Source: a virus
Taxonomy: Duplodnaviria; Heunggongvirae; Uroviricota; Caudoviricetes
Virus record (IMG/VR): IMGVR_UViG_2563366800_000003
DNA length: 19,093 bases
Strand: one strand, 5' to 3'
Part shown: one piece after another, positions 271 to 15,080 of the stretch
Layout: every line of letters begins with the position of its first letter
Position numbering within the stretch: the stretch's first letter is position 1
Notes under the pieces: generated by a model
Told to the model about the DNA's origin: nothing
What the model saw: the letters and a program-made list of their open reading frames with translations, nothing else
The model's database searches: none
Translations under genes and position numbers: made by a program

Positions 271-745
271 TGTTCTTGCCCCCTTATTTCCAGACAGGGG
301 GTGTATCTTAAGTTAACGTTACCCGCTGACGTCGATATTCTCGCGGAGAGCGGTAACCCAACGCACTGTGCGGATGGTTTTCATTGTAATGTTCGATCGC
401 CACTGCAAGATTATGCAATGCCGTTCTTACATTCGGTTTCGGCATGAACGCGATGTAGTCTTCCTTCATCGTTTTCACGAACCTTTCTGCCATTCCATTA
501 CTCTGAGGACTGCTGATTGCCGTTGTGCAGGGCTCCAGATTCAACTCTCTGGCGAACTGCCGTGTTTCATGCGCTCTATACGCTGAACCGTTATCTGTCA
601 GCCACTGGATGGACTGTTCCGGTACTTTATCGCCAAAGCGTTTTTCTATCGCTCCTAACATGACATCCTGCACTGTCGCTTTATCGTAACCTCCCGTGCT
701 TGCGGCCCAGTCTATGGCTTCACGATCGCAACAGTCCAGGGCGAT
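271..745 (-). mobile_element. Truncated IS3-family (IS2-group) insertion sequence remnant; terminal repeat near 271-296, N-terminal part of the transposase missing
   Basis: 271-300 (TGTTCTTGCCCCCTTATTTCCAGACA...) resembles the IS2 terminal inverted repeat; the adjacent minus-strand ORF encodes an IS2-like OrfB C-terminus; similarity is lost upstream of ~745. Confidence 0.6.
308..745 (-). pseudogene. IS3-family (IS2-like) OrfB/InsD transposase, C-terminal fragment only
   Basis: Track ORF 308-673 (…[57 protein letters not shown]…[18 protein letters not shown]) matches the IS2 InsD C-terminal domain pattern; the frame stays open upstream to a stop at 746-748 (…[25 protein letters not shown]…) with no plausible N-terminus, so it is truncated. 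Confidence 0.7.
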
Positions 746-1020: not shown

Positions 1021-1066
1021 ATTCGTAATGCGAAGGTCGTAGGTTCGACTCCTATTATCGGCACCA
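1021..1066 (+). other. 46-nt 3' portion of tRNA-Thr(CGU) (thrW-type) without its 5' half; attachment-site core of the downstream integrative element
   Basis: ATTCGTAATGCGAAGGTCGTAGGTTCGACTCCTATTATCGGCACCA matches my recollection of the E. coli thrW 3' end (anticodon CGT, T-arm GGTTCGACTCC, acceptor TATCGGC + CCA). The preceding 30 nt do not form the matching 5' acceptor/D-arm (GCCGATA…), so this is not an intact tRNA gene. Confidence 0.7.
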
Positions 1067-1083
1067 TTCAAACATCTCCCCAA

Positions 1084-1165
1084 GTCTACTAAAGTCTTTC
1101 AAAACCCCTTATAATCCGCGTATTAAAGCCCCGTTCGTCTTTTGACGTCTACTAAAGTCCCTCAA
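1084..1165 (+). repeat. Two direct copies of GTCTACTAAAGTC(Y)(Y)TCAAAA (1084-1102 and 1147-1165) between the att core and int
   Basis: Seen directly in the sequence, 63 bp apart; the position fits accessory-factor or arm-type binding sites of an attP-derived region (inference). Confidence 0.45.
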
Positions 1166-1178
1166 AATCTACGGTCAG

Positions 1179-1231
1179 ATGGGGGTACTTATGGGGGTAT
1201 TTGCTGTTCGGTTTAGTGGAGGTACCCCCAA
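1179..1231. promoter_or_regulatory. Three TGGGGGTA motifs (two direct at 1180-1187 and 1192-1199, one inverted at 1223-1230) immediately upstream of int; candidate arm-type integrase binding sites
   Basis: Seen directly; a near-identical ATGGGGGTACTT(T)TGGGGGTAT block recurs at 17693-17718 near the proposed right end. A GGAGG Shine-Dalgarno (1218-1222) for int lies within this region. Confidence 0.45.
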
Positions 1232-2446
1232 GTGAAACTCAATGCCCGTCAAATAGACACAGCCAAGCCAAAAGAGAAGGCTTACAAGCTGGCCGATGGT
1301 GGCGGTTTGTATCTCTTGGTAAAACCTAATGGAGGTAAATACTGGCGACTTAAATATCGTGTAGCTGGTAAAGAGAAGCTATTGGCACTAGGTGTGTATC
1401 CTGAGGTTACTCTAGCCGATGCTCGGGCAAAACGTGAAGATGCGAAAAGAGGTATCGCTGGTGGTATCGATCCGATGGAAGCGAAACGAGAGGAAAAGAT
1501 TGCCCGGGAAACGCAGTTAAACAACACCTTCAAAGATATTGCCCTTGAGTGGCACAGCAGCAAATTAAAAAAATGGTCTGCTGGTTATGCTTCAGACATC
1601 CTCGAAGCCTTCAACAAAGATGTGTTCCCTTACATTGGCAAAAAACCAATCGCCGAAATCAAACCACTTGAACTTCTGAATGTGCTGCGGCGCATCGAGG
1701 GGCGCGGTGCTACAGAAAAAGCCAAAAAAGTGAGGCAGCGGTGCGGGGAAGTTTTCCGCTATGCAATAGTCACTGGTCGCGCAGAGTATAACCCTGCACC
1801 AGACCTTACTAGCGCGATGCAAGGCCATGAATCTAATCATTACCCTTTCCTTACAGCCAAAGAATTACCTGATTTTTTCAAGGCATTGTCCAGTTACTCA
1901 GGAAGCGCATTGGTTGTTATGGCGGCTCGTCTACTGATTATCACCGGCTTGCGGACTGGCGAACTACGTGGCGCATTATGGGATGAAATTGATTTCAACA
2001 AGGCTATCTGGGAGATACCCGCTTCACGTATGAAAATGCGGCGGCCTCATATTGTGCCATTGTCTGAGCAGGCTCTTTCGCTTATTGGGAAGATTAGAGA
2101 AATAACAGGCAATTACCCTCTTATGTTTCCCGGGCGCAATGATCCAAGGAAAACAATGAGCGAGGCCAGCATAAACCAAGTGTTTAAGCGCATTGGCTAC
2201 GCTGGACGTGTAACTGGTCATGGGTTCCGGCACACTATGAGTACGATTTTGCATGAGCAGGGCTATAACACCGCGTGGATAGAAACGCAGCTCGCTCACG
2301 TTGATAAGAACTCAATTCGTGGCACATACAACCATGCGCAATATCTGGATGGAAGGCGGGAGATGCTTCAATGGTATGCCGACTATATGGATTCTCTCGA
2401 GCATGGCGGAAATGTGGTGCATATGGTGTTTGAAAAACACGCATGA
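1232..2446 (+). CDS. int: P4-family tyrosine integrase (site-specific recombinase, phage integrase family)
   Basis: 404-aa ORF with GTG start 9 nt after GGAGG; N-terminal arm-binding-type region (LNARQIDTAKPKEKAYKLADGGGLYLLVKPNGGKYWRLKYR), catalytic-domain signatures HGFRHT and C-terminal RGTYNHAQYLDGRREMLQWYADYM typical of CP4-57 IntA/P4 Int relatives; sits directly next to a tRNA 3' fragment. Confidence 0.9.
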   Translation: MKLNARQIDTAKPKEKAYKLADGGGLYLLVKPNGGKYWRLKYRVAGKEKLLALGVYPEVTLADARAKREDAKRGIAGGIDPMEAKREEKIARETQLNNTFKDIALEWHSSKLKKWSAGYASDILEAFNKDVFPYIGKKPIAEIKPLELLNVLRRIEGRGATEKAKKVRQRCGEVFRYAIVTGRAEYNPAPDLTSAMQGHESNHYPFLTAKELPDFFKALSSYSGSALVVMAARLLIITGLRTGELRGALWDEIDFNKAIWEIPASRMKMRRPHIVPLSEQALSLIGKIREITGNYPLMFPGRNDPRKTMSEASINQVFKRIGYAGRVTGHGFRHTMSTILHEQGYNTAWIETQLAHVDKNSIRGTYNHAQYLDGRREMLQWYADYMDSLEHGGNVVHMVFEKHA

Positions 2447-2716
2447 AACAACTGGACAAGTATACAGAGGTTTACTAAAGTATAGGGGAGTAGATTGATA
2501 AAAACTCACAGAGGATTGCTATTTAACAGTTAGCCCTGGAGAAGGGCAATCGCTCTTTTATAAACGAAGGTGTATTGAGCCTTCTACGTCGCTGACAAAG
2601 CGGAATGTTCTTTAAAACTACTGGATGTCACGCCTAATAGCGTGATCCTGCCGAAATGCAGGGTAGCTCTACCCTTGTGGAGCAAACAAACCAAAACAAT
2701 CTGACTATCTTTTATA

Positions 2717-2751
2717 AAAGACCGCAATATGTTTTTCATATTGTGGTCTTT
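2717..2751. promoter_or_regulatory. Imperfect 15-bp inverted repeat (AAAGACCGCAATATG-TTTTT-CATATTGTGGTCTTT) in the AT-rich int-alpA intergenic region; candidate operator or terminator
   Basis: Seen directly; one mismatch in the stem; lies ~90 bp upstream of the alpA start. Confidence 0.3.
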
Positions 2752-2837
2752 GGCGTATTCGGCATTTGACGCAAATAAAACTCTCGCCATTCGTTGCAGG
2801 AGGGGGTTATTGCGTCATTAGTACAGGATATTAATAA

Positions 2838-3041
2838 ATGGCTAATTACAATTCATTAATTCGTCTCTCTGAAGTTCAAAGGCGAACTGGTTATAGCAAA
2901 GCATGGATTTATCGTCTTATTAGTCAGGGGAGGTTCCCTAAACAGGTAAAAATTGGAAGTCGGGCAATTGCTTTTGTTGAGTCTGAAATAGATGAATGGA
3001 TTGAGAAGTGTATATTAGAATCTAGAGACGAGATGGCCTGA
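2838..3041 (+). CDS. alpA: AlpA-family phage transcriptional regulator/excisionase-like DNA-binding protein
   Basis: 67-aa ORF RLSEVQRRTGYSKAWIYRLISQGRFPKQVKIGSRAIAFVESEIDEWI matches the AlpA helix-turn-helix pattern; position directly after int is typical of P4-like/PICI elements. Confidence 0.85.
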   Translation: MANYNSLIRLSEVQRRTGYSKAWIYRLISQGRFPKQVKIGSRAIAFVESEIDEWIEKCILESRDEMA

Positions 3042-3472
3042 TGGAAAAGAAAAACCGCCCATTACAGGCGGCTAATTCAGATATTCGTGTATCTGATGTT
3101 ACGCCCCTTACAAAATCCCTTCAAGCACCAAAGCGCACACCGAAAAAGCATCGTGCCAGAGTCTATATGCTGCGTACTGGTATAGAGGGATGGACAGAAA
3201 ATGACATTCTTCGCTACTGCCGTCTGTCTTCTGGTCGTAACTATGCAACAGAGTTAGAACGCCAGCTTGGAATCACTCTGGAGCGTATCGACGAAAAGAA
3301 TCCTGATGGTATCGGAACACACCTTCGCTACCGTTTCTCCTGCCGTGGTGATGTTCTGAAAGTGATCACTCATATTAACCATCTTGCGAACATAAATGAT
3401 CACAACGGACTTTCTCAGCAGGAAATTGCCGACATTCTGAAACTCTACCCGGACGCGTTTAACGCCGCCTAA
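3041..3472 (+). CDS. Hypothetical protein (143 aa), translationally coupled to alpA (TGATG overlap)
   Basis: ORF with start overlapping the alpA stop; no family recognised. Confidence 0.55.
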   Translation: MEKKNRPLQAANSDIRVSDVTPLTKSLQAPKRTPKKHRARVYMLRTGIEGWTENDILRYCRLSSGRNYATELERQLGITLERIDEKNPDGIGTHLRYRFSCRGDVLKVITHINHLANINDHNGLSQQEIADILKLYPDAFNAA

Positions 3473-3484
3473 CGGAGACTGAAA

Positions 3485-4318
3485 ATGAACATCGAAAAAA
3501 GCAGATTAATTTCTGAGGCTGCCCCTCATCTGAACGCCTCTCTGGGCACAATTAACGGTAATGAATTTGCCGCAATTGTCCCGGTTATTCCTGGTCATAT
3601 CGGTGGGCGTGAAACCAATATTGTTAGCGCAAAAGCGTTACACAAAGCGTTGGGCGTGGGAAAAGACTTCTCTACATGGATCACTGATCGCATCTCTGAA
3701 TATGACTTCACCATTGGGCACGATTACTCAGTCCATAAAACAATTTCCCCAAATTTGGGGAAAAGCCCGAATGGCGCGGCTTACAGCAAGATTAAGCAGT
3801 CTGGCAGACCCGGCAAAGACTATCTGTTAAGTGTCGGAATGGCGAAAGAACTGGCAATGATCGAACGCAATGATCAGGGTCGCGCTATCCGTCGTTATTT
3901 CATCCAGTGCGAGGAAGAATTACAGCGTAGCGTGCCTGAAATCGCCGCCCGCTATCGTCGCCAGCTAAAAGCCCGTATTAGTGCCGCAAACAACTTTAAG
4001 CCAATGTGCGATGCGCTGAATATGGCCCGTGCCGAGCAGGGGAAAACGACGCAGCAACACCACTACACAAACGAGAGCAATATGATTTCTCGTATCGTTC
4101 TTGGTGGGCTAACTGCTAAGCAGTGGGCGCGGATAAATGGCTATTCTGGCGAACCTCGCGACCATATGAACGCAGAACAGCTTGAGCACCTCTCATATCT
4201 CGAAAGCACCAATATCACGTTAATTGATATGGGCATGGAATATGAGCAGCGCAAAGGAGAACTCACCCGCTTGTCGCAACGCTGGCTCGCCAAGCGTCTG
4301 GAGGCGGTCCATGTTTAA
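3485..4318 (+). CDS. Phage antirepressor-like protein with AntA/AntB-type N-terminal domain
   Basis: 277-aa ORF; VSAKALHKALGVGKDFSTWITDRISEYDFTIGHDY fits the AntA/AntB antirepressor domain pattern (V.A..LH..L.....F..W...RI..Y.F....DY). Confidence 0.65.
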   Translation: MNIEKSRLISEAAPHLNASLGTINGNEFAAIVPVIPGHIGGRETNIVSAKALHKALGVGKDFSTWITDRISEYDFTIGHDYSVHKTISPNLGKSPNGAAYSKIKQSGRPGKDYLLSVGMAKELAMIERNDQGRAIRRYFIQCEEELQRSVPEIAARYRRQLKARISAANNFKPMCDALNMARAEQGKTTQQHHYTNESNMISRIVLGGLTAKQWARINGYSGEPRDHMNAEQLEHLSYLESTNITLIDMGMEYEQRKGELTRLSQRWLAKRLEAVHV

Positions 4319-4493
4319 GCCGACAGGAACACCACAACCTCAAAAACGCTACAAAGATGCCCACGGAGCACTCGTTACTGTCGAAAGCGTGTCTCACAAC
4401 CGAGTGACGTTTTATCGCGACGGGTATCAATCGCCATGCGTACAACCGCTGGCACGTTTCATGAAGGAGTTCGCGGAGGTTAACAAATGCTAA
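4311..4493 (+). CDS. Small hypothetical protein (60 aa), ATG overlapping the stop of the preceding gene
   Basis: ATGTTTAA overlap at 4311-4318; [60 protein letters not shown]; the track shows a longer frame from 4224 but coupling favours 4311. Confidence 0.4.
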   Translation: MFKPTGTPQPQKRYKDAHGALVTVESVSHNRVTFYRDGYQSPCVQPLARFMKEFAEVNKC

Positions 4494-5554
4494 CCGCCCA
4501 GAAGAAGATATTTTCACTGGCTGGTATGTCGCCAAAATCCAGCAATATGACAGCAAAGTCAGACATTAATACAGCAGATACAAGCAAAGTTTATCATTTT
4601 CTGGTGGTAGGAGCGGATGCCTTAACTATGTCAGAAATTACGGTCGATGGTGTTAGCGTTGAGAAGGTCAGCGGCTATGCCAGAGAATTTCTGGTCGTAG
4701 ATGGCTTTCTCTGCTCGTGTAGTGACTCCACAAAAACCTTCGTCCACGCGCGTGACGTTAACGAAATGAGCGCGATGTACTGTGCTTCTGGTTCTTCCAA
4801 TAGTGAGTTTTCGGAGTCCATAAAAAAGAGCTTGCCGTTATGCGGCAACACGGTTTATGGTTATAAGGCACCTCATAAAACGGGTGCCGGGATTGGCGTC
4901 CTGAAAATTCTGAAGGCGACATATGACGCGCCGAGCGTCTTTTTTTATGTCGTAGGTCTGACTCACCCATTTTTTGGGCGTTGGTGTATAATCCAGCGCC
5001 TTTGTCAATCAATGGTGGCTCAGGCGGGGGCTTCTTCGGAAGCGCCGGTATCCTTCAGAGCCGGTTACGCCAACCCTGTCTGGGCTACCACCAGCGAAAT
5101 TGGCGTTTCCGGTGGTAGCGTAACCTGCTATCTGAAGGAGGCTGCCACATGCTGGCTACTACCCCTACCCAAAAAACGCAATTTATCTGGATTATCGCCG
5201 CAGTTCGCCGCGATTGCCCGACAATTACCGCCAAAATTCATCATATTGCTGCCGAGTCTGAACGCGATGCTCGCCGTTCTCTGGTGCGCGATCACATCTG
5301 CTTTTTTGCTGGTCGTATCCGCATGGAGGTGGCACATGATTAAAACCTACGATGTGCATATGGATCCCCTCGAACGCACAAGCCAGATCATCACACTGAC
5401 AGAAGTGATTAACGACATTCTGGTGAGCAACTCTCCCTCACGAGACGAAAAACTGAAGGCGTTACTCGCGATATTGGACCTCGCCGTTCGTGACGTTCAT
5501 TTCCTGCTGGAAGGTGGACAAATGCCATGCAAAACGGGGGCAACCAATGAATAA
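4487..5554 (+). CDS. Uninterrupted 355-codon ORF, probably composite: plausible N-terminal ~145-aa hypothetical protein and a separate C-terminal small gene (5336-5554, 72 aa, GGAGG RBS) joined by low-quality run-on
   Basis: Good RBS (GGAGG, 4475-4479) before the ATG at 4487; the middle of the frame contains a terminator-like hairpin plus T-run (~4925-4946), a TATAAT-like hexamer (~4985-4990), and a W/C-rich improbable translation; a second gene with a strong RBS occupies another frame at 5149-5343. Confidence 0.35.
5149..5343 (+). CDS. Small hypothetical protein (64 aa)
   Basis: AAGGAGG 8 nt upstream of the ATG at 5149; its stop overlaps the next ATG (ATGATTAA at 5336-5343), indicating translational coupling. 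Confidence 0.45.
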   Translation: MLATTPTQKTQFIWIIAAVRRDCPTITAKIHHIAAESERDARRSLVRDHICFFAGRIRMEVAHD

Positions 5555-5741
5555 CTCAATTAATACCCCTCGCCTTACGTCCGCACTTCAATTAATCGAG
5601 CAAGCAGCGGCTGTCCCGGTTGCTGTCAGTCTTTCGGCTGAAGAAATGGACGCTGCTGATGTCGTGGATGCGATTAAAGCGTGCTCATCTTTGGTTAACG
5701 ATGCCCGTGCCGAGCTGGTAATTCTTGGGGGTGAAAAATGA
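5547..5741 (+). CDS. Small hypothetical protein (64 aa; track ORF 5490-5741 with internal start at 5547)
   Basis: ATGAATAA overlap with the upstream frame stop at 5552-5554 and a G-rich RBS; [64 protein letters not shown]. Confidence 0.5.
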   Translation: MNNSINTPRLTSALQLIEQAAAVPVAVSLSAEEMDAADVVDAIKACSSLVNDARAELVILGGEK

Positions 5742-6001
5742 ATATCAACTTAATTTATCGTCATCCGTGTGAGCTGGAAATTGAATCATTGCTGGGGCGC
5801 GAAGAGCCATATCCAGACACATTCACTCCCGCAGATTGCGCGACTGAACGGCTTACCAGAGCGCGCACAGGTCTGGTTCATGTGATGAATGAGATTGTTC
5901 CCTCGGTGGGAGGGGAACAGGCGACAGTAATCAATAGCTGGCTACAAAAAGTTACCTCCCTGATAGATATCGGTTTAATCGATGTGGAGAGTGCGAAATG
6001 A
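5738..6001 (+). CDS. Hypothetical protein (87 aa), ATGA-coupled
   Basis: Start overlaps the upstream stop (ATGA at 5738-5741); no family recognised. Confidence 0.55.
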   Translation: MNINLIYRHPCELEIESLLGREEPYPDTFTPADCATERLTRARTGLVHVMNEIVPSVGGEQATVINSWLQKVTSLIDIGLIDVESAK

Positions 6002-6219
6002 CCAACATCCAGCTCATTGAAGCGCAATGTCGCATCGAACAGGTTCAGACTGTTTTAGGGTTCTGGCTTGAAGGGGCCAGCCCCAGCAACAGAGACAAGT
6101 TAATGATTGGCGCGGTTATGTCACTGCTCAATGGCGTACCAGAAGCTATTCAGGAAGCGGACGAATTGTTGGGCAAATATGAGTTACAGAATCATTCAGG
6201 CGAGGCGAAACATGAATAA
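5998..6219 (+). CDS. Hypothetical protein (73 aa), ATGA-coupled
   Basis: Start overlaps the upstream stop (ATGA at 5998-6001); no family recognised. Confidence 0.55.
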   Translation: MTNIQLIEAQCRIEQVQTVLGFWLEGASPSNRDKLMIGAVMSLLNGVPEAIQEADELLGKYELQNHSGEAKHE

Positions 6220-6814
6220 TTTCTTAACTTTCCATGCAGAAGCAACGCCTGACGGCGTAAACATCATGTACCGCAGCAACGATGGCATGACAGAACGCGT
6301 TGATACCGTCTCATATATTGATGCCGTAAATCGTCTGGATGCCGGGGATTATGACGATAAACCAGATGAAGGCATGTTTATACATCTCGCTATTGCCAGT
6401 GGCGGCAACCAGGGATATTTCGATTACACATCACAGCATCACGTGATTATGTGGCGCTGGCTGATAGCAACAGCATTCATCAATGAAATGAGAAAGGAAA
6501 ACGGCACCGTCAGCATTATTGATGACAGTGGCAATCATTCCGTGGTTTCTGTTTATTCCAATGGCATCGTCGCCATGCCGCTGTATCCAGTAGCAGAGCG
6601 CCTCGCTATGGCAAACAACATTGAGGGCGCAATGATCGAGAAATATGGTGTTGATGTCGGAACAAATAATGCCATCATTTTTTACAGCAACATGTTCGAT
6701 GTCGAACAGGGAACACTCACTTCGTTTGGGCGAGAAGTGCTTGCCGATCTTCACAACAGCTTTATTGCCGAACTAAACGAAAACGGCATCCCAGAAGCAC
6801 CAGTGACGCACTAA
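6212..6814 (+). CDS. Hypothetical protein (200 aa; track ORF 6107-6814 with probable start at 6212)
   Basis: ATG at 6212 is preceded by GAGG and overlaps the upstream stop (ATGAATAA); begins MNNFLTFHAEATPDGV…; no family recognised. Confidence 0.6.
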   Translation: MNNFLTFHAEATPDGVNIMYRSNDGMTERVDTVSYIDAVNRLDAGDYDDKPDEGMFIHLAIASGGNQGYFDYTSQHHVIMWRWLIATAFINEMRKENGTVSIIDDSGNHSVVSVYSNGIVAMPLYPVAERLAMANNIEGAMIEKYGVDVGTNNAIIFYSNMFDVEQGTLTSFGREVLADLHNSFIAELNENGIPEAPVTH

Positions 6815-6826
6815 ACGGGGGCCAGA

Positions 6827-9583
6827 ATGCGAAACATTGATCTTATCCGTCAGGTTATCAGTGCGTCTGAAAACAACTGGCCTCATGTGCTGGGCTGCCT
6901 GAACATAAATGTCCCTGACTCTCCGCGCCGTCATGCTCCCTGCCCTGCATGTGGGGGCAAAGATCGATTCCGGTTCGATGACAACGGGCGCGGTAGCTTC
7001 ATCTGTAATCAGTGCGGCGCTGGTGATGGGCTGGATTTAATTAAACGCGTAAATAACTGTGACACAACAGAGGCGGCGCTGCTTGCCGCTGATGTTCTGG
7101 GTATTGATTACCGGACAACGGAAACACCAGAAGCCACCAGCCAGAAACGGGAACAACTGGAAACCGAGCGCCAGCGACGCGAACAGGAGCGCCTGAAAAG
7201 GGCAGAGAAGGACGAACAACAAAGACGGGATACGTTTTCCCGTCAGTTTGATGACATGCGCAGAAAGGCTGTAAACGGCAAATCTGATTATCTGGTTGCG
7301 AAAGGGGTAGGTGATTTTACATTCCCAGTGTTGCCCGATGGATCTCTGTTGCTGGCGCTGGTGGATAAATCCGGCGCAGTCACAGCAGCACAGACTATTA
7401 CCTCACATGGTGAAAAAAGACTCCTGACAGGTTCAGCAAAGCGAGGGGCATATCACGCCATAAACGCACCAGAAACAACACAGAGCATCTTAATCGCAGA
7501 AGGGCTGGCAACGGCATTATCTGCCCATTTAATTCGTCCAGAATCGCTGACAGTGGCGGCGATTGATGCCGGGAACCTGTTATATGTCGCCCAGGTACTG
7601 CGGGATAAATTTCCTTCAGCACAAATCATCATTGCTGCGGATAACGACCACAGCGAAGGAAGACAAAACACGGGGAGAATAGCAGCAGAAAAAGCAGCTT
7701 TATCTGTTTCTGGATGGGTGGCATTACCCCCGACAGATCACAAAGCAGACTGGAATGATTACCACCAAAAACACGGCATTAAATGCGCCACAGAAGCGTT
7801 CAATAAGTCAATGTACCAACCACAGGGTAATGGCGTGAAACAGCAGCCACAGACCATTGAGGGAAGCGATTTTAAGGTTATGGATACCGACCCACTGAAA
7901 CCAAGAATAGAAAGCCGCGAGGATGGTATTTATTGGGTATCTCCGAGAGCTGACAGCCAGAGTGGAGAAATCATCAATAACGAAAGCTGGTTATGTTCTC
8001 CGTTAAGCGTTATCGGTACTGGCAGAGACGATAAAGACCAGTATCTCATTCTTCGCTGGCTGTCGTTTGGTTCTGAAACGCCGACAACCGCTGCCATTCC
8101 ACTGGCTGATATTGGTGAACGTGAAGGATGGCGCACACTTAAAGCTGGTGGGGTAAATGTCACGACCAAAAGCAGCCTCAGAGCAATACTGGCAGACTGG
8201 CTACAACGCAGTGGCTCTCGTGAATTGTGGCGTGTTGCTCATGCCACTGGCTGGCAATGCGGAGCGTACATCATGCCTGATGGGGAAATCATCGGAACAC
8301 CTGAAAATCCTGTGCTGTTCAGCGGGAGAAGCTCAGCCGCAGCCGGATATACCGTCTCAGGGAGCGCGAAAAGCTGGCGTGATAACGTGGCGCGTCTGGC
8401 CTTTGGTAACTATTCAATGATGACCGGGATCGGCGCAGCACTGGCAGCGCCATTGATTGGGCTGGTGGGCGCTGACGGGTTCGGCATTCATTTCTATGAG
8501 CAGTCGAGCGCAGGTAAGACCACCACGGCAAACGTGGCGAGCAGCTTATACGGCAACCCTGATTTATTGCGGCTGACGTGGTACGGAACCGCGCTGGGGC
8601 TGGCAAATGAAGCCGCCGCCCACAATGACGGACTAATACCGCTTGATGAAGTTGGTCAGGGCGCTGATCCTGTCAGTGTTTCACAGTCTGCCTATGCGTT
8701 ATTTAACGGTGTAGGGAAACTGCAAGGCGCTAAAGATGGTGGAAACCGGGATCTAAAACGCTGGCGTACAGTGGCAATCAGCACTGGAGAAATGGATTTA
8801 GAAACATTTATCGCTACTTCCGGGCGAAAAACCAAAGCCGGGCAACTGGTGCGACTGCTGAATATTCCGTTGAGTAAAGCAGTACGCTTTCACGATTACC
8901 AGAACGGAAAACAGCACGCAGACGCACTGAAAGACGCTTACCAGCATCACCACGGCGCAGCCGGGCGTGAGTGGATTAAATGGCTGGCAGACCACCAGCA
9001 ACAGGCAATTAAAACTGTTCGTGACTGCGAAAGCAGATGGAGAAGTCTGATCCCATCCGATTATGGTGAGCAGGTTCACCGTGTAGCCGCGCGATTTGCC
9101 ATTCTGGAGGCCGCATTGCTGTTAGGCGAGGTTGTAACAGGCTGGGATGCTCAGACATGCCGTGATGCGATACAGCACAGCTATAACGCATGGTTGCGCG
9201 AGTTCGGCACAGGTAACAAAGAACATCAGCAGATTATTGAACAAACGGAGGCATTTCTTAATGCCTATGGGCTTAGCCGTTTTGCACCATTTCCATACAG
9301 CCCGGCAGATTTGCCCATCAAAGATTTGGCCGGATACCGTCAGCGTGGAGAACATGACGAAAGCCCAATGATTTTCTACACATTCCCGGCCACATTTGAA
9401 AAGGAGATCGCATGTGGTTTCAACGCAAAACAGTTTGCTGAAGTGTTGAAAAAAGCCGGGATGCTAACCCCACCAAACAGCGGTCGTGGATACCAAAGAA
9501 AATCACCACGTATTCAGGGACGACAAATAAACGTTTATGTACTCAATTACCAGCCAGGAGATTATAACTCATCTGAAGAATGA
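6827..9583 (+). CDS. Primase-helicase replication protein (zinc-binding N-terminus, Toprim primase domain, C-terminal P-loop NTPase/DUF927-like domain), P4 alpha/PICI Pri-Rep type
   Basis: 918-aa ORF; CxxC…CxxC zinc ribbon (CPACGGKDRF…FICNQCGAG); Toprim signature (ILIAEGLATA … IIIAADNDHSEGRQ); P-loop-like SAGKTT with downstream hydrophobic-DE Walker B (GLIPLDEVGQ); iteron array immediately 3'. Confidence 0.9.
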   Translation: MRNIDLIRQVISASENNWPHVLGCLNINVPDSPRRHAPCPACGGKDRFRFDDNGRGSFICNQCGAGDGLDLIKRVNNCDTTEAALLAADVLGIDYRTTETPEATSQKREQLETERQRREQERLKRAEKDEQQRRDTFSRQFDDMRRKAVNGKSDYLVAKGVGDFTFPVLPDGSLLLALVDKSGAVTAAQTITSHGEKRLLTGSAKRGAYHAINAPETTQSILIAEGLATALSAHLIRPESLTVAAIDAGNLLYVAQVLRDKFPSAQIIIAADNDHSEGRQNTGRIAAEKAALSVSGWVALPPTDHKADWNDYHQKHGIKCATEAFNKSMYQPQGNGVKQQPQTIEGSDFKVMDTDPLKPRIESREDGIYWVSPRADSQSGEIINNESWLCSPLSVIGTGRDDKDQYLILRWLSFGSETPTTAAIPLADIGEREGWRTLKAGGVNVTTKSSLRAILADWLQRSGSRELWRVAHATGWQCGAYIMPDGEIIGTPENPVLFSGRSSAAAGYTVSGSAKSWRDNVARLAFGNYSMMTGIGAALAAPLIGLVGADGFGIHFYEQSSAGKTTTANVASSLYGNPDLLRLTWYGTALGLANEAAAHNDGLIPLDEVGQGADPVSVSQSAYALFNGVGKLQGAKDGGNRDLKRWRTVAISTGEMDLETFIATSGRKTKAGQLVRLLNIPLSKAVRFHDYQNGKQHADALKDAYQHHHGAAGREWIKWLADHQQQAIKTVRDCESRWRSLIPSDYGEQVHRVAARFAILEAALLLGEVVTGWDAQTCRDAIQHSYNAWLREFGTGNKEHQQIIEQTEAFLNAYGLSRFAPFPYSPADLPIKDLAGYRQRGEHDESPMIFYTFPATFEKEIACGFNAKQFAEVLKKAGMLTPPNSGRGYQRKSPRIQGRQINVYVLNYQPGDYNSSEE

Positions 9584-9607
9584 GCTTCTTCATGTGCGTA
9601 GAAAAGG

Positions 9608-9722
9608 TGTTGGTTCAGTTGGTTCAGTTGGTTCAATTTGTAAAGAGTATTGTTTTATAAGGATTTTATTCTTTTTATTGAACCAACACTGAACCAACAA
9701 CACGGTATTTTGAACCAACACA
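9608..9722. repeat. Iteron-type origin module: three tandem (G)TTGGTTCA repeats (9608-9637), a 41-bp AT-rich spacer, three inverted TGAACCAAC repeats (9679-9719)
   Basis: Seen directly; sits immediately downstream of the primase-helicase gene, the usual place for a satellite/plasmid ori; an inverted copy occurs at 15638-15762. Confidence 0.6.
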
Positions 9723-10040
9723 ATGTGACTGAATTGATGCGCACAACACCTGGCTGGCATCAGAGAGTGTTTTACGAGACTTTCGTAAAATCCTGTGTAC
9801 AAGGGCGTGACGTTTTTGAAAGTAAGCACTACGAAATTTTCGTAGTTCAAAAAACAGCCTTTGAGAAGTTGTTATGCCTGTTCAGCAAACCATCCGCATA
9901 GCTGATCGCGAATCAAATTACCAATGGAGCCAGAAGCAAGGGCAGAACTGGAAAGCGCCTGCCGTGAAGAGTAATGCGACACCATAAATATAGTTTTTAG
10001 AGTCCATAAAAAACCTGTCAAAACCTGACATACAGAACGA

Positions 10041-10072
10041 TGCCACCAGCTACTGAGTGGTGGCATTTTTTT
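10041..10072 (+). terminator. Rho-independent terminator (8-bp stem TGCCACCA/TGGTGGCA, 9-nt loop, 7 T's)
   Basis: Perfect stem and T-run seen directly at 10041-10072. Confidence 0.6.
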
Positions 10073-10128
10073 GTGCTATTTGTTTCATATTTTGCAATTA
10101 CGATGATGAATATTGCGATTTGTGAAAC

Positions 10129-10152
10129 TATAATAACTGTTGTTTTATACAG
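10129..10152 (+). promoter_or_regulatory. Candidate -10 hexamer TATAAT (10129-10134) followed by a LexA-box-like CTGT-N8-ACAG (10137-10152) upstream of the cargo operon
   Basis: aaCTGTtgttttatACAGtt fits the CTGT-N8-ACAG core of SOS boxes with a mostly AT spacer; flanking bases deviate from the TACTGT…ACAGTA consensus; no convincing -35. Confidence 0.35.
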
Positions 10153-10167
10153 TTCTAAGGGGGCGTT

Positions 10168-10341
10168 ATGGCTATTTCAGTAAAGCCAGTATTGATAAGT
10201 GAGAAGCAAATGGAAGCGATAAAGAAAATTCAGGAGGAGCAGCGTAAAAAATCAGAGGTAGGAGTTGCGCCAACGATCCACGAAATTGCTCGGGGATTAA
10301 TGGATAAGGCGCTGGCTTACACTTTAACTGGACGTGGGTAA
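10168..10341 (+). CDS. Small hypothetical protein (57 aa), first gene of the cargo operon; possibly a small DNA-binding or adaptor protein
   Basis: Strong RBS (AAGGGGGCG) before the ATG at 10168; [57 protein letters not shown]; below the 60-aa cut-off of the ORF track; its stop lies 4 nt before the next ATG. Confidence 0.5.
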
Positions 10342-10345
10342 ATCA

Positions 10346-11782
10346 ATGGCTACGTGGCAACAGGGTATTAATTCTGGTGGTTTTCTGGCTGGCATCGGTA
10401 CGCAAAATGAGAATGCGCCAAAGGCAAGCGACATTAACGCAACGCTTGGTCTGATCCGCGAAAACAATGAACTGGCTCGCTCAGGTGCAAATAACGTTGG
10501 TCTGACCGCGTTACGTGGTCTGGCTGGAGTTGCTGATATTTATAAGCAGCAGCAACAGCAGGAGCGTAAAGCGGCATTCCAGAAAGGTTATGCAGATGCT
10601 TATGCGTCCGGCGACAGGGAGCAGATGCGTAATCTTATTACAGCATTCCCAGAAGAGTTTGAGGAAGTCCGTAAAGGGATGAGTTATGTCGATGATGCTC
10701 AAAGGGATGATTATGGCAATCTGGCGCTCAAAGCACAGGTAGCCTCATCGCTTGGTCCGGGAGCATTTGGCAGGTTCATGATGGATAATGAGCAGGAGAT
10801 GCGTCGTTTAGGTATCCCTCCAGAAACTATTGCTGAAATGCAGGTTAATGACCCGCAGGGCTTCCAGCATTTCGCAGGTAATCTGGCGTTGTTTTCTCTC
10901 GGTCATGAGAAGTACTTCGATATCAAAGATCGAATGGAGGGTCGGGATATTGAGCGTGGCGAGTTGGCAGAGACGATTCGCAGCAATAAAGCTGGGGAAG
11001 GTTTACAGGCGCAAAGCATTGCTGTTAGCCGTGAAAACTCTCTGCGCACTGCTGGAGGTGCTGTTCCTGCATCTGTTAAAGAATATCAATATTTCAACAG
11101 CCTGTCTCCAGAGCAACAAAAGACATATCTTCGTGTTCGAGGCCGTCCTGCTGCTGGCGGGGAGAATGTTGTGCAACTGGCAGATGGTAGAACGGTAACG
11201 GTTGGTCGGAAGCTTCACGGCGCTGGTGCTAATGCGTTCTACGAAGGAATAGACAACGAGGGCAATATGATTCGCGTCCCCGCAAGTTCTATTGCTGCTC
11301 CGGCTACATCGGCAGCTAATGCGCAGAATTACGAAATGAAGAAAGATCTTGATGCAATTTCTGGCGCATCAATTGACGATCTTGGCTTCATGACAGGTAT
11401 TACAGGTTCTTCAGGTTCTTTTGCTCTTGGTGCAGATATTCGTAGCCGGGCATCTGGTGTTGAGGAGAGGAAACTATACAACGCTGCACAGCGAATCATG
11501 GGCAAAATGCAAAATCAGGGGATTGCGGCAGCCCGAGATATGGGGGCATCTGGCATCAACACCGAAGCAGAGGCCAATAGGTATTTTCAGGGTATGCCAA
11601 AGCCTGATTTCTCAAGCCCTGAAGCACTACAACAATCAATGCGCGACATTCAGCAATATACCGACAATTACAACCAGCAATATAACGTTAATGTTGGTAA
11701 ATCTCAGCGGCAGCAATCTCAACCTGCACAGGTATCACAGCCAGCAGCCAGCAGTAACTTTTCTTCACTATGGGGTGATTAA
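10346..11782 (+). CDS. Hypothetical protein (~478 aa; track frame opens at GTG 10334), low-complexity Gly/Ala/Gln-rich, predicted largely helical, no catalytic motif recognised
   Basis: Long ORF with consistent coding character; stop TAA overlaps the next start (TAATG at 11780-11784); N-terminal Gly-rich segment, Q-rich tail (…[19 protein letters not shown]). Confidence 0.8.
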
Positions 11783-13887
11783 TGGCTAAAGCATGGAAAG
11801 ATGTTATCGCTTCTCCACAGTATCAGGCGTTAGCACCAGAACAAAAAGCGCAGGCTCAGGAGCAATACTTCAATGAAGTCGTGGCCCCGCAAGCCGGAGA
11901 AAGTGTAGAGCAGGCTAAGCAGGCTTTTTATGCTGCCTATCCACTGCCATCAACGAATGAAATAGACCGATCCCAATCAGCAACTCAAAATATTCAACAT
12001 ACATCATCTGATAATTCTCTTGCGTCAGGGTATGCAAAGTTAGCTACTCAGCAAAGAGAGGGGCTTGAGCGTTCAGCAGAACAGGGAGCCAGTCTTGGGG
12101 CTGCGATGCGCGATGCTATAACAGGCGAAAGCCGAATGACTCCAGAGATGGAGAGACTGCAAAATGTCGCCTCTGCCCCAGAATTGAACTCACTAAGCAT
12201 GGATGCCTTAAAGGCTGGATGGTCTCAACTTTTCGGCTCTGACGCGTCTCAGGAAAAGATTCTTCAGGGAATGGGGGCGACATTAAGGCAGGATGAGAAG
12301 GGGAATACTATCGTTTCTCTGCCATCAGGTGATTATGCCCTAAACAAGCCGGGTTTATCACCGCAAGACCTGACTTCGTTTCTTGCTAATGCGTTGGCGT
12401 TTACACCAGCGGGCAGGGCTGGAACGGTGCTTGGTGCCATAGGAAAATCAGCAGCTACAGATTTAGCACTACAGGGAGCCACCAGCCTTGCTGGTGGAGA
12501 AGATATTGATCCGTTACAAACGGTAATTTCTGCTGGCATTGGTGGTATTGGTAAGGGGCTGGAAAATACAGCGAGTGCGGTTTCGAGGGCTGTTCGTGGT
12601 GATATGTCGCCTGAAGCAAAGGCTGCTGTCGACTTTGCATCGGAAAGAAATCTGCCGTTAATGACCAGTGACATGCTGAAAGATAAAACCTTTATGCAGA
12701 GTCAGGCTCAGACATTAGGCGAAAGACTTCCTTTTTTTGGAACCGGTAAGAACCGACTGAATCAACAACAAGCACGAGAAAATTTAGTCAGAACATTTAG
12801 CGATGGTCTGGGGGGAATTTCAGATAAACAGCTTTATGAGTCTGCGACTAAAGGGCAGCAAAAATTCATTGAGGCAGCAGGAAAGCGATATAACCGCATA
12901 ATTGACGCTATGGGGGATACCCCTGTCGATCTCTCAAACACGGTAAAAGCTATCGACAATCAGATTGCCGTGTTAAGCCGACCGGGCAAATCTCAGGATA
13001 GAGCCGCGGTAAAAGTCTTGCAGCAATTTAAAGACGATATCACCAGCGGACCCAATGACCTGCGTCTGGCGAGAGAAAACAGAACTGACCTTCGAAAGCG
13101 GTTCATGAATTCAAACGAGACTGTTGATAAAGACACGCTCCAGAAAGCCAGCGATATTGTCTACAAGGCATATACAGCGGATATGAAAAAAGCAGTATCC
13201 CAAAAACTAGGCTCAGAAGAAGCTACCAATATGTCTAGGGTTGATCGCTCATGGGCTAGATTCAATGACATGATGGGAAGAACGCGCGTTCAAAAGGCAA
13301 TAGCCAGCGGCAAGGCCACGCCTGAGGATGTAACAAAACTCGTTTTTAGCCAAAACCCATCAGAACGTTCTCAGCTTTACAGGCTTCTGGATGACAATGG
13401 TAGGCAAAACGCACGAGCCGCCATAGTTCAGAATGCTGTAGATAAGGCGACTGATCCGTCTGGAAATATCAGTGTTGAGAAGTTTATTAATGCGTTACAC
13501 CGGAACAGGAAGCAATCAGCAACTTTCTTTAAAGGCGTATATGGAAAGGAACTGGACGGCGTTATTAAATACCTCAATGATACAAGACACGCGGCAAAAG
13601 CGAACGTTCAAAACTTAAATGGTCAGCAGCTTTATGGATTGTTAGTTGGTGGTGGCATCATAAACGCAGCAGTATTAGCGGGGATGCTAAAAACGGCTGC
13701 GTTTGTTGTTCCTGCTGCTGGTGTCGTAGGCGGAGCAGCGAAGGCATACGAAAGCCCTGTTATACGAAATGCCTTGTTACGTCTGGCAAATACGCCAAAA
13801 GGTAGCACAGCATATGACAGAGCGATCAGTACGGTCACACAATCGCTCACCAGAGTCGCACAGGCATCACAAAAAGAATCTCAATAA
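11782..13887 (+). CDS. Hypothetical protein (701 aa), helical/low-complexity with a C-terminal Gly/Ala-rich hydrophobic hairpin (residues ~617-653); candidate membrane-inserting protein
   Basis: Translationally coupled to the upstream gene, GGGGTGA RBS; hydrophobic LYGLLVGGGIINAAVLAGMLKTAAFVVPAAGVVGGAA near the C-terminus; no nucleotide-binding or nuclease motif seen. Confidence 0.8.
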   Translation: MAKAWKDVIASPQYQALAPEQKAQAQEQYFNEVVAPQAGESVEQAKQAFYAAYPLPSTNEIDRSQSATQNIQHTSSDNSLASGYAKLATQQREGLERSAEQGASLGAAMRDAITGESRMTPEMERLQNVASAPELNSLSMDALKAGWSQLFGSDASQEKILQGMGATLRQDEKGNTIVSLPSGDYALNKPGLSPQDLTSFLANALAFTPAGRAGTVLGAIGKSAATDLALQGATSLAGGEDIDPLQTVISAGIGGIGKGLENTASAVSRAVRGDMSPEAKAAVDFASERNLPLMTSDMLKDKTFMQSQAQTLGERLPFFGTGKNRLNQQQARENLVRTFSDGLGGISDKQLYESATKGQQKFIEAAGKRYNRIIDAMGDTPVDLSNTVKAIDNQIAVLSRPGKSQDRAAVKVLQQFKDDITSGPNDLRLARENRTDLRKRFMNSNETVDKDTLQKASDIVYKAYTADMKKAVSQKLGSEEATNMSRVDRSWARFNDMMGRTRVQKAIASGKATPEDVTKLVFSQNPSERSQLYRLLDDNGRQNARAAIVQNAVDKATDPSGNISVEKFINALHRNRKQSATFFKGVYGKELDGVIKYLNDTRHAAKANVQNLNGQQLYGLLVGGGIINAAVLAGMLKTAAFVVPAAGVVGGAAKAYESPVIRNALLRLANTPKGSTAYDRAISTVTQSLTRVAQASQKESQ

Positions 13888-13891
13888 CTGG

Positions 13892-13916
13892 TTAGCCATG
13901 GATGGCTAATTTTTGT
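13892..13916 (+). terminator. Rho-independent terminator (TTAGCCA-TGGA-TGGCTAA followed by TTTTTGTTCTTT) ending the cargo operon; overlaps the 3' end of the convergent membrane-protein gene
   Basis: 7-bp stem, 4-nt loop, T-rich tail directly after the 701-aa stop codon. Confidence 0.5.
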
Positions 13917-14325
13917 TCTTTGCTCTCATCCATAGGTAAAGAAGGGAAAGAACAAGACAAAAAACAGAGAATAGATAACCTACCTCATATGGTGCGCCAA
14001 AAAAATTAGCTATTGATACGGGCAAAAAAGCTGAAGCGATCAAAATTGAAAGGCAAAAAATAAGCCCAGTAATATAGTTTATTAAATTCTTAAATGAGAA
14101 ACGTTTTGCTTGATTTACGGTCTTAACGAACGATCGCTTAACGACGGATAAAAGCAAATAGATGGCGACAGTTGCTAATACCCCTTTCCACCAGTCTGGA
14201 TATAGTTTTGCGACAATCAGACCAAGTAAAACCATGATGACAGCCTGAGCATTCACACCAACCCTCCCTTTAGCTTTGTTTAGAATGGCAATCATCATAT
14301 ATCCAAGACATGGCATTTGGTACAT
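13906..14325 (-). CDS. Small polytopic inner-membrane protein (predicted 4 TM helices; 139 aa from the first ATG, ~117 aa if the GTG at 14259 with GGGAGGG RBS is used), convergent to the cargo operon
   Basis: Hydrophobic segments VIMVLLGLIVAKLY, VLATVAIYLLLSVV, ITGLIFCLSILIASAFLPV, YLFSVFCLVLSLLYLWM; strongly AT-rich codon usage unlike its neighbours. Confidence 0.65.
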   Translation of the reverse strand: MYQMPCLGYMMIAILNKAKGRVGVNAQAVIMVLLGLIVAKLYPDWWKGVLATVAIYLLLSVVKRSFVKTVNQAKRFSFKNLINYITGLIFCLSILIASAFLPVSIANFFGAPYEVGYLFSVFCLVLSLLYLWMRAKNKN

Positions 14326-14443
14326 AGCTTGGGTCGGGATTTCAAATCCGCTCCCAGTTGATGGGGTCGTTACAGTACGCGCATATCCGCTTTATGTGAA
14401 ACAGGAAGATTTTTCTGATATCACTGCCACAGCAAAACACCAA

Positions 14444-14467
14444 TTTCGAGACAAGTACGCGCGCGAG
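14444..14467. repeat. Copy a of the TTTCG(A/G)GACAAGTACG(Y)GCGCG repeat family
   Basis: Seen directly; related copies at 14731-14758 and 16120-16150, shorter CAGTACGCGC/CAGTACGCAC variants at 14374-14384 and 14505-14518. Confidence 0.5.
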
Positions 14468-14730
14468 GGGTATCAGTTGCAAAATTTTTTGCAACTGCGT
14501 CCGACCAGTACGCACACGATGGCGGGGGATACCATGAAACTGTTCTCTACATAAGTCAGAGTGGTGGTGATGTGTTGATTATCGGCGTATATGCGCACAG
14601 GACGCGCTATGACAATGTTTTATGCGGGTACACCAATCACATGTATCTGGTGTGATAAATCGCGTTACATGACATCTCATGTTGTGCTGGTGGTTATCAC
14701 GACGTTCTGAATCTGGCTTTTGTCTGATAT

Positions 14731-14758
14731 TTTGCGACAAGTACGTGCGCGTAGCATC
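14731..14758. repeat. Copy b of the GACAAGTACG(Y)GCGCG(CG)TAGCA repeat family
   Basis: TTTGCGACAAGTACGTGCGCGTAGCATC; shares the upstream TCTGATAT motif with copy a. Confidence 0.5.
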
Positions 14759-14779
14759 GACAGCATACACATTGGATAT

Positions 14780-15001
14780 TCATTTTGTGACCAATGCGAT
14801 AAGTAGCGGGATAAGCATTGATAAAATCAACAGGCCGATGATCCACTTTTGATTTTCACTGGCCTTATCTCTATTTTCATCAATCTTATCAATAATTCGA
14901 CGCTCCAAGCCGTGCATATCACCGCGAATGGCAATCATCTCATTGCGAACATCCGAGAAGTGGTTGGCTTGATGTTCAATGTGTGGCGTTCTGCCTTTCA
15001 T
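14780..15001 (-). CDS. Small protein (73 aa) with charged helical N-terminus and a single C-terminal transmembrane anchor; XhlA-like architecture
   Basis: …DKIDENRDKASENQKWIIGLLILSMLIPLLIALVTK; GAGG 9 nt upstream of the ATG; family assignment is by architecture only. Confidence 0.5.
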   Translation of the reverse strand: MKGRTPHIEHQANHFSDVRNEMIAIRGDMHGLERRIIDKIDENRDKASENQKWIIGLLILSMLIPLLIALVTK

Positions 15002-15080
15002 TCCTGATCCTCACCTATCGTCACCACCTGCTGGTGTATAAAGGTATTGGCCCAAGCAGCTTTCCAATGGGCACTCATGT

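Follow-up and report, generated by a model that had tools for sequence, protein, structure and literature searches.

A conserved hydrophobic segment in the gp16-type DNA ejection protein of an EcCIMP1-type phage satellite

The stretch of DNA analyzed here, termed the window, is the virus record IMGVR_UViG_2563366800_000003 (19,093 nucleotides), and the subject is a 701-aa protein encoded in it together with a Gly/Ala-rich hydrophobic segment near the C-terminus of that protein. Full-length homology and gene order identify the 701-aa protein as a DNA ejection protein of the P22 gp16 type whose gene is translationally coupled to that of a gp20 homologue, and the segment, as seen in the family alignment, is a conserved hallmark of the gp16 family and not a sign of a new toxin. 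Both genes reside in a 16.7-kb phage-inducible chromosomal island (PICI) of the EcCIMP1 type (window positions 1050–17786), which is a satellite of P22-like phages and not a prophage. The features required for the argument are as follows.

11782–13887, plus strand: 701-aa P22 gp16-family DNA ejection protein (PHROG 770, tblastn, PF26808 in homologues)
10346–11782, plus strand: gp20 homologue, periplasmic-tunnel ejection protein and cognate partner of gp16; 478 aa from ATG 10346, the program-made open reading frame (ORF) starting from GTG 10334
13630–13740, plus strand: Gly/Ala-rich hydrophobic segment, residues 617–653; arms at 617–636 (13630–13689) and 638–653 (13693–13740), turn residue K637 (13690–13692)
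13621–13623, plus strand: codon of G614, the near-invariant Gly opening the segment, equivalent to P22 gp16 G532
13747–13755, plus strand: Y656-E657-S658 motif closing the segment, followed by the conserved RNALLRLANTPKGS
12370–12591, plus strand: second Gly/Ala-rich region, residues 197–270, moderately hydrophobic and charged

The 701-aa protein matches the PHROG 770 profile ('DNA transfer protein') with an E value of 1.7e-163, residues 19–699 being aligned to profile positions 3–666 of 668. In tblastn searches, identities were 66% to phage N7, 33% to Sf6 gp13 over the full length and 30% to P22 gp16 over residues 210–683. Pfam PF26808 (Phage_P22_gp16) is carried by homologues of the protein, which itself gave no match in a search of a Pfam set without PF26808; NCBIfam and PADLOC gave no match for the protein or its neighbors. 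At E ≤ 1e-3 the gp16 family contains 1396 cluster representatives, and a scan of genome contigs recovered mostly distant relatives sharing only the N-terminal peptide with the 701-aa protein. Full-length profile homology is accompanied by two further characters of the gp16 family, i.e., coupling to gp20 and the conserved C-terminal frame described below. Virion packaging, ejection at infection and association with the cytoplasmic membrane are known for P22 gp16 only (PMC10883804; bioRxiv 10.64898/2026.09.03.749273).

The gene upstream encodes a gp20 homologue (Pfam Inj_translocase PF16928, E 3.3e-82; PHROG 917, E 6e-199), which is of the P22 type over its entire length including the N-terminus that binds gp7; binding of gp7 by the gp20 N-terminus has been described for P22 (bioRxiv 10.64898/2026.09.03.749273). 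The stop codon of gp20 overlaps the start codon of the 701-aa gene by 1 nt (TAATG), as in P22, and the order gp20-then-gp16 is common to the window, P22, N7, Sf6 and prophages. Complete P22-like prophages contain relatives at 73–76% identity, whose genes are flanked by gp20 and the tailspike region. The intact and identical 701-aa gene of strain EPSSH018 (L001, 14283–16098) is called a pseudogene 'missing C-terminus' in RefSeq, the annotation stopping at codon 605, immediately before the hydrophobic segment. As the ORF has no differences from that of the window, this label is an annotation artefact.

The sequence at residues 617–653 is LYGLLVGGGIINAAVLAGMLKTAAFVVPAAGVVGGAA, and the position of the segment is exact (11782 + 616 × 3 = 13630). 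Nine Ala and eight Gly residues make up 46% of the 37 positions, compared with 21% in the whole protein, and the segment also contains a single Lys (K637), a single Pro (P644) and a single Asn. Seven small-xxx-small motifs are present. Arm 1 consists of 20 uncharged residues with a Kyte-Doolittle (KD) value of 1.84, above the classic cut-off of 1.6, and arm 2 of 16 uncharged residues with one Pro. Only in this segment do KD averages of 19-residue windows exceed 1.2 (maximum 1.86; whole-protein mean −0.45). Such a 19-residue peak is unremarkable by itself, being equaled in 360 of 5000 composition-preserving shuffles (7%), whereas the 37-residue mean of 1.62 is matched in only 2 of 5000, indicating that the extended hydrophobic stretch is not an accident of composition. 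A sequence-only reading had described the segment as a glycine-zipper-like stretch of about 37 residues broken by K and P in an otherwise hydrophilic protein. Position, sequence, composition and zipper-like character all agree with the present results; 'otherwise hydrophilic' needs qualification, as residues 197–270 form a second Gly/Ala-rich region of moderate hydrophobicity. This second region has medians over the gp16 family of 41% Gly plus Ala, 13% charged residues and a mean KD of 0.41.

Conservation of the segment was assessed in an alignment of 128 full-length relatives, most of which are 25–45% identical to the window protein; segment lengths were counted from the opening Gly through YES. 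Of the 128 relatives, 125 have a Gly at the position of G614 and 109 a YES at that of residues 656–658, and Y656, E657, S658 and R662 are nearly invariant columns. The C-terminal frame of the window protein accordingly reads Gly, uncharged Gly/Ala-rich segment, YES..RN.LLRLANT. Between these landmarks, the length is 32–45 residues (median 38), made up of Gly, Ala, Leu, Val and Thr with a breaker near the center, with 40% Gly plus Ala and a median of one charged residue; charged residues account for 3% of the segment and 29% of the core. The most hydrophobic 19-mer of the protein falls in the segment in 62% of the relatives. Its peak 19-mer hydropathy has a median of 1.33 and reaches 1.6 in 16%, and a Pro or polar residue is located mid-segment in 121, as expected for a turn. 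What is conserved in the segment is composition and not sequence. The segment of the window protein is the longest in the family and its hydrophobicity exceeds that of 95% of the family.

Among proteins about 70% identical to one another, the segment exists in two alleles, a long one (LYGLLVGGG...) and a short one (LMAGPAALAS...). Identity is 35% in the segment and 62–83% elsewhere, so that the segment behaves as a swappable cassette. The long allele is found only in islands and in prophages of Citrobacter, Yersinia and Pectobacterium. Between two island alleles, the ratio of nonsynonymous to synonymous substitution rates (dN/dS) is 0.14 for the whole gp16 gene and 0.11 for the segment, showing purifying selection on both.

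The comparison with P22 gp16 links the segment to the inner membrane. P22 gp16 (609 aa) is a cytoplasmic-membrane channel protein of a Salmonella phage, encoded by the phage itself whereas the window gp16 is encoded by a satellite. It is homologous over residues 210–683 of the window protein, is placed after gp20 with the same 1-nt overlap, and has a Gly/Ala-rich segment of the same class between the same landmarks (G532 for G614; YES/RN.LLRLANT). The P22 segment is nine residues shorter (36 versus 45 from Gly through YES) and much less hydrophobic (19-residue KD 0.73 versus 1.86). In addition, the window protein has an N-terminus of the Sf6/HK620 type and an extra insert at about residues 117–200 with predicted strands.

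For P22 to escape the inner-membrane exclusion protein SieA, gp16 G532W and P546S are required together with a change in the gp20 C-terminus (Leavitt et al., PMC10883804). In two independent alignments, G532 corresponds to G614, the opening residue of the segment, and P546 aligns to K637/T638, its turn; this connection was not drawn by the authors of that study. In situ cryo-electron microscopy has assigned a density across the cytoplasmic membrane to gp16, the membrane-spanning part being resolved only to about 10 Å, and P22 gp16 was described as having no strongly predicted transmembrane (TM) helix (Yu et al., bioRxiv 10.64898/2026.09.03.749273). The weak TM prediction holds for P22 gp16, in which the segment is short and weak, and not for the allele in the window. 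A review gives putative C-terminal TM helices for all of the gp16-like proteins that it lists (PMC8954989), and thus a C-terminal membrane element is not in itself a new idea. We regard as established what the 701-aa protein is, the setting of its gene, the conservation of the segment throughout the family and the positions to which the escape mutations map.

In the full-length AlphaFold2 (AF2) model, the predicted local distance difference test (pLDDT) score falls below 50 at residues 624–642, and in a model of the fragment 556–701 at residues 618–650, the hairpin being no sharper than in the full-length model. Low-confidence helices are modeled at 614–623, 629–635 and 642–656, whereas the helices flanking the segment are confident (pLDDT above 85), and the segment therefore lies outside any confident soluble core. 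Region 197–270 has pLDDT values of 35–45. Burial of the segment in a soluble globular core, which the sequence-only reading had named as its refutation, is thus not seen in these models, and a hairpin is not positively predicted either. The same reading proposed a membrane as the site of action. This is reasonable for the protein, as a gp16-family ejection protein; for the hairpin itself, the family-wide lack of charge and the positions of the SieA-escape mutations lend support to a putative membrane-inserting role.

Taken together, the segment at residues 617–653 is probably, by a modest balance of the evidence, a membrane-inserting or membrane-apposed hairpin of the DNA channel; we infer its insertion, its topology and its role in oligomerization. 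The gp16-type protein would be packaged in the podovirus head and expelled at infection, and would then assemble below the periplasmic tube formed by gp20 and convey DNA through the cytoplasmic membrane. Within the virion, or while the protein is in solution, the segment would be loosely structured or shielded. After ejection, it would form a helical hairpin that enters the cytoplasmic membrane or lies against it, and the small-xxx-small faces of this hairpin would pack with neighboring gp16 copies, thereby forming or anchoring the trans-membrane part of the channel. This membrane step of the segment would be the point attacked by SieA-type inner-membrane exclusion proteins.

Several points weigh against a membrane-inserting hairpin. 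Simple sums on the Hessa scale are unfavorable for the two arms (+2.1 and +4.1 kcal/mol), so that the energetics of spontaneous translocon-type insertion are marginal, and arm 2 is merely 16 residues long. The segment of P22 itself is short and weak, with the 19-residue KD of 0.73. As summarized in PMC10883804, the truncation study of Perez et al. (2009) found P22 gp16 residues 476–609, which include the homologous segment, to be dispensable for membrane association in vitro. Given the low AF2 confidence, neither the hairpin nor pairing of the arms is actually predicted, and structure and fold searches found no solved structure for the gp16 family.

Some of these points would be explained if the segment were a protein–protein interface, with its glycine-zipper faces packing gp16 subunits together or docking on the gp20 C-terminal plinth or on host YajC at the periplasmic face, and with region 197–270 binding the membrane. 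The finding that residues 1–475 of P22 gp16 suffice to associate with membranes in vitro (Perez et al. 2009, cited in PMC10883804) is consistent with this, and region 197–270, a second conserved Gly/Ala-rich region of low pLDDT, may be a candidate for the membrane binding seen with the C-terminally truncated protein. The seven small-xxx-small motifs and the marginal insertion energetics fit an interface as well, as does the fact that the SieA-escape set joins gp16 mutations with gp20 C-terminal ones and that gp16 and gp20 must match in order to work (PMC10883804). A soluble interface, however, normally conserves sequence, whereas this segment conserves only composition and lack of charge, is exchanged as a cassette among proteins about 70% identical, and has the 3% charge more typical of a lipid-exposed segment. 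An interface in place of membrane insertion is therefore considered possible, though rather unlikely; the two roles are not mutually exclusive.

Alternatively, the segment might be a flexible low-complexity spacer that aids unfolding and threading through the portal and tail channel and does nothing specific at a membrane or an interface. In favor of this, refolding is known for ejection proteins (PMC8954989), both models give pLDDT values below 50 here, and the sequence varies between conserved flanking motifs. Flexible linkers, however, are usually polar, whereas the segment is nearly chargeless and, in 62% of relatives, more hydrophobic than any other part of the protein; moreover, its length is kept within 32–45 residues, its dN/dS is 0.11, and escape mutations with a phenotype fall within it. 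A mere spacer is thus improbable.

The membrane-hairpin interpretation can also be compared with other ejection proteins. The closest deposited phage protein is ORF13 of phage N7 (HZ41), 66% identical over residues 69–701; N7 has a short 'type II' allele of the segment (LTGQMVAGPAALITALASVTNP...), whereas the window has the long one. Sf6 gp13 shares with the window protein the N-terminal 37 residues and the full-length architecture. T7 gp16 (1318 aa; putative TMH I and TMH II) works alike: it is the last in a set of three ejection proteins, is soluble until it is ejected, refolds to cross the inner membrane and inserts into liposomes (PMC8954989). It differs in having a transglycosylase domain and twice the length, and no sequence or fold similarity between it and the window protein was detectable.

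The two genes are part of a cassette in the island, whose remaining features are as follows.

1050–1059, plus strand: attL core TCCTATTATC; homology to other genomes begins at 1021
17777–17786, plus strand: attR core TCCTATTATC; homology to other genomes ends at about 17810
1232–2446, plus strand: island tyrosine integrase, in a region with 99.7% DNA identity to the EPSSH018 island, which has the integrase of EcCIMP1
6827–9583, plus strand: island primase (Zn-ribbon, Toprim, DUF927)
9609–9721, no strand assigned: origin-like iterons immediately downstream of the primase gene, with GTTGGTTCA three times in direct orientation, a spacer rich in AT and TGAACCAAC three times as inverted copies
10168–10341, plus strand: 57-aa ORF with which the cassette begins, shared by sister islands; hypothetical protein in RefSeq
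13890–13911, plus strand: terminator-like hairpin located where the gp16 and membrane-protein genes converge
13906–14325, minus strand: 139-aa membrane protein with about four TM helices by hydropathy, in the slot of sieA in P22 (order 7-20-16-sieA, the last on the opposite strand)

The island encodes the integrase, an AlpA-like helix-turn-helix (HTH) protein, AntA, Ash and the Toprim/DUF927 primase, and shows the characters of the EcCIMP1 family of PICIs, i.e., an integrase, an AlpA-type regulator, a primase with an adjacent origin, att repeats and no capsid or lysis genes. EcCIMP1 itself, from E. coli MP1 (Pick, Stadel and Raivio 2025, PMC11773190), has the same att core TCCTATTATC, the same backbone (AlpA-like HTH, AntA, Ash and primase) and the same place for the cassette. 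EcCIMP1 and the EPSSH018 island, the latter 99.7% identical in DNA to the window, occupy the same tRNA-Thr site between proA and yagU, and the annotations of EPSSH018 and MP1 both list integrase WP_000772643.1. Helper-induced excision and transfer have been shown only for EcCIMP1, with the P22-like phage Kapi1 as helper (PMC11773190).

In all these islands, the cassette after the primase, the origin and the same small ORF consists of ejection-protein genes. The 57-aa ORF had no family match in NCBIfam or PADLOC. The EcCIMP1 cassette contains gp14-gp7-gp20, followed by a 906-aa transglycosylase-type gp16 analogue and a lipoprotein, whereas the window has gp20-gp16 of another type and a 4-TM protein. 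This 906-aa analogue looks unrelated to the window gp16 but, like it, contains one Gly-rich hydrophobic stretch near the C-terminus, at a distance of about 85 residues. L024, an island located elsewhere in the chromosome, contains gp14-gp7-gp20-gp16 with a gp16 93% identical to that of the window, which has gp20-gp16 only; the backbones of the two islands are nearly identical up to the 3′ end of the 57-aa ORF. Among 5426 complete E. coli genomes, the window-type arrangement is present in 56 and the four-gene type in 180 (about 4%). The cassette genes were taken in the EcCIMP1 paper as possible packaging functions and not as an ejection-protein set (PMC11773190), and a literature search found no paper describing satellite-encoded ejection proteins as such.

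Published swaps indicate that gp16 and gp20 must stay matched, whereas gp7 is interchangeable (PMC10883804). The gp20 genes of the window (10346–11782) and L024 (8580–10001) are mosaic, the N-terminal and central parts being different and the last approximately 18 residues, at the gp16 junction, identical. This pattern suggests that recombination has preserved the match between the gp20 C-terminus and gp16. A sigma-70 promoter belonging to the cassette was sought upstream of the 57-aa ORF; the scan found none, only a terminator-like hairpin at 10049–10064. Expression of the cassette probably needs an activator.

The gp20-gp16 pair might instead have been left behind by a P22-like prophage, formerly adjacent to the island at the shared tRNA-Thr site, and be in decay, in which case the hairpin would be without function here. 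The window island is without the gp14 and gp7 genes of its sister islands, P22-like phages have the same 20-16 order followed by a small gene on the opposite strand, and no sigma-70 consensus promoter precedes the cassette. Decay is hard to reconcile, however, with two intact ORFs that are identical in other strains, with their occurrence in 56 complete genomes and that of the 14-7-20-16 version in 180, with the dN/dS of 0.14 for gp16, and with the fixed position of the cassette, which follows the primase and origin and begins with this small ORF in islands integrated at separate places in the chromosome. Furthermore, the retained pair is exactly the co-adapted unit shown by the published swaps to travel together, gp7 being interchangeable (PMC10883804). 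A simple deletion remnant of a prophage is therefore judged very unlikely.

In alpha-pore-forming toxins such as colicin pore domains and the ClyA family, an uncharged helical hairpin in an otherwise soluble helical protein undergoes a water-to-membrane switch, as is proposed here for gp16. The arms in the window protein are shorter and Gly-richer than those hairpins, their role would be DNA delivery and not killing, and there is no significant structural match. Fold searches of the 701-aa protein gave no significant match to any toxin, pore-forming toxins included; ClyA, PaxB and AhlB appeared among the non-significant Foldseek matches (E 0.3–0.9, TM-score below 0.1), and the protein does not have the fold similarity by which a ClyA- or colicin-type toxin would be assigned. 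Of the pore-forming toxins and phage ejection proteins to which the sequence-only reading had likened the hairpin, only the latter comparison survives, and the 'effector' of its operon gives way to a gp20-gp16 ejection-protein cassette inside a phage satellite. That the 701-aa protein is a membrane-damaging toxin of a defense or toxin operon is scarcely credible, the hairpin composition and those few Foldseek matches being set against full-length homology to virion ejection proteins with conserved synteny, no PADLOC match, no significant toxin fold and the finding that P22 particles delivering gp16 without gp20 leave cells unharmed (bioRxiv 10.64898/2026.09.03.749273).

The 139-aa membrane protein downstream of gp16 is 73% identical to the same-slot protein of a Yersinia P22-like prophage. 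It was considered as a SieA and rejected, as BLAST showed no similarity to P22 SieA or to a RYPGEA-bearing SieA-like prophage protein, and the motif FxRYPxEAxxFNK of SieA types A–C (PMC10883804) is absent from it; it shares with SieA only position and membrane location. The position after gp16 is a variable 'moron' slot (window 13906–14325, minus strand; L024 12166–12603; EcCIMP1, L026, 12632–13330; L002 5403–5897). The L024 protein is secreted and has 145 aa, of which only about the first 28 are common with the 4-TM protein of the window; that of EcCIMP1 has 232 aa with a lipobox, and P22 has sieA. Resemblance to SieA is limited to the slot proteins of P22 and Citrobacter. These slot proteins might account for the superinfection immunity that was reported for EcCIMP1 without an explanation (PMC11773190).

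Beyond the slot, the stretch between the membrane-protein gene and a PRiA4_ORF3-family gene (window 14400–16600; L001 16900–20000) differs between the window and EPSSH018, whose islands are otherwise near-identical. In EPSSH018 it contains a gene of the Abi family and one for a PerC regulator, and in the window three small minus-strand ORFs including one for a 151-aa protein; the stretch looks like a variable or defense hotspot. Left of attL, an IS3-family transposase fragment (308–673, minus strand) is located where other strains have tRNA-Thr, and no tRNA gene was found in the window, including the left end of the island. Right of attR, 18174–19093 (minus strand) encodes what we take, from the translation, to be a CbtA/CbeA (YeeV/YeeU) toxin–antitoxin pair, which would presumably belong to a neighboring CP4-type island.

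With respect to the hairpin, the findings are mostly known biology, i.e., a conserved feature of a known and annotated family with published membrane activity. They bear on the location of the membrane-crossing part of gp16. The segment is uncharged family-wide and fixed in place, reaches TM-level hydrophobicity in some alleles and contains both gp16 SieA-escape mutations; it is thus a concrete and testable candidate for that part and for the target of SieA, and the window provides a better model allele than that of P22.

The satellite context is the more interesting part. A widespread family of E. coli satellites carries complete or partial ejection-protein sets, which the sole paper on such an island did not recognize (PMC11773190). 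These sets suggest that satellites may adjust how DNA enters the cell, in addition to capsid size or packaging. As a tentative and rather doubtful proposal, the cassette might serve as the satellite's own injection cassette, in which island gp20 and gp16 are loaded in helper-built capsids instead of, or mixed with, those of the helper, the swappable hairpin sets membrane crossing and SieA-like blockage, and the adjacent variable membrane-protein or lipoprotein gene provides a matching exclusion factor. If so, satellite particles would gain an entry spectrum unlike that of the helper, or mismatched gp16/gp20 pairs would sabotage helper progeny, and the adjacent exclusion factor could explain the superinfection immunity of EcCIMP1.

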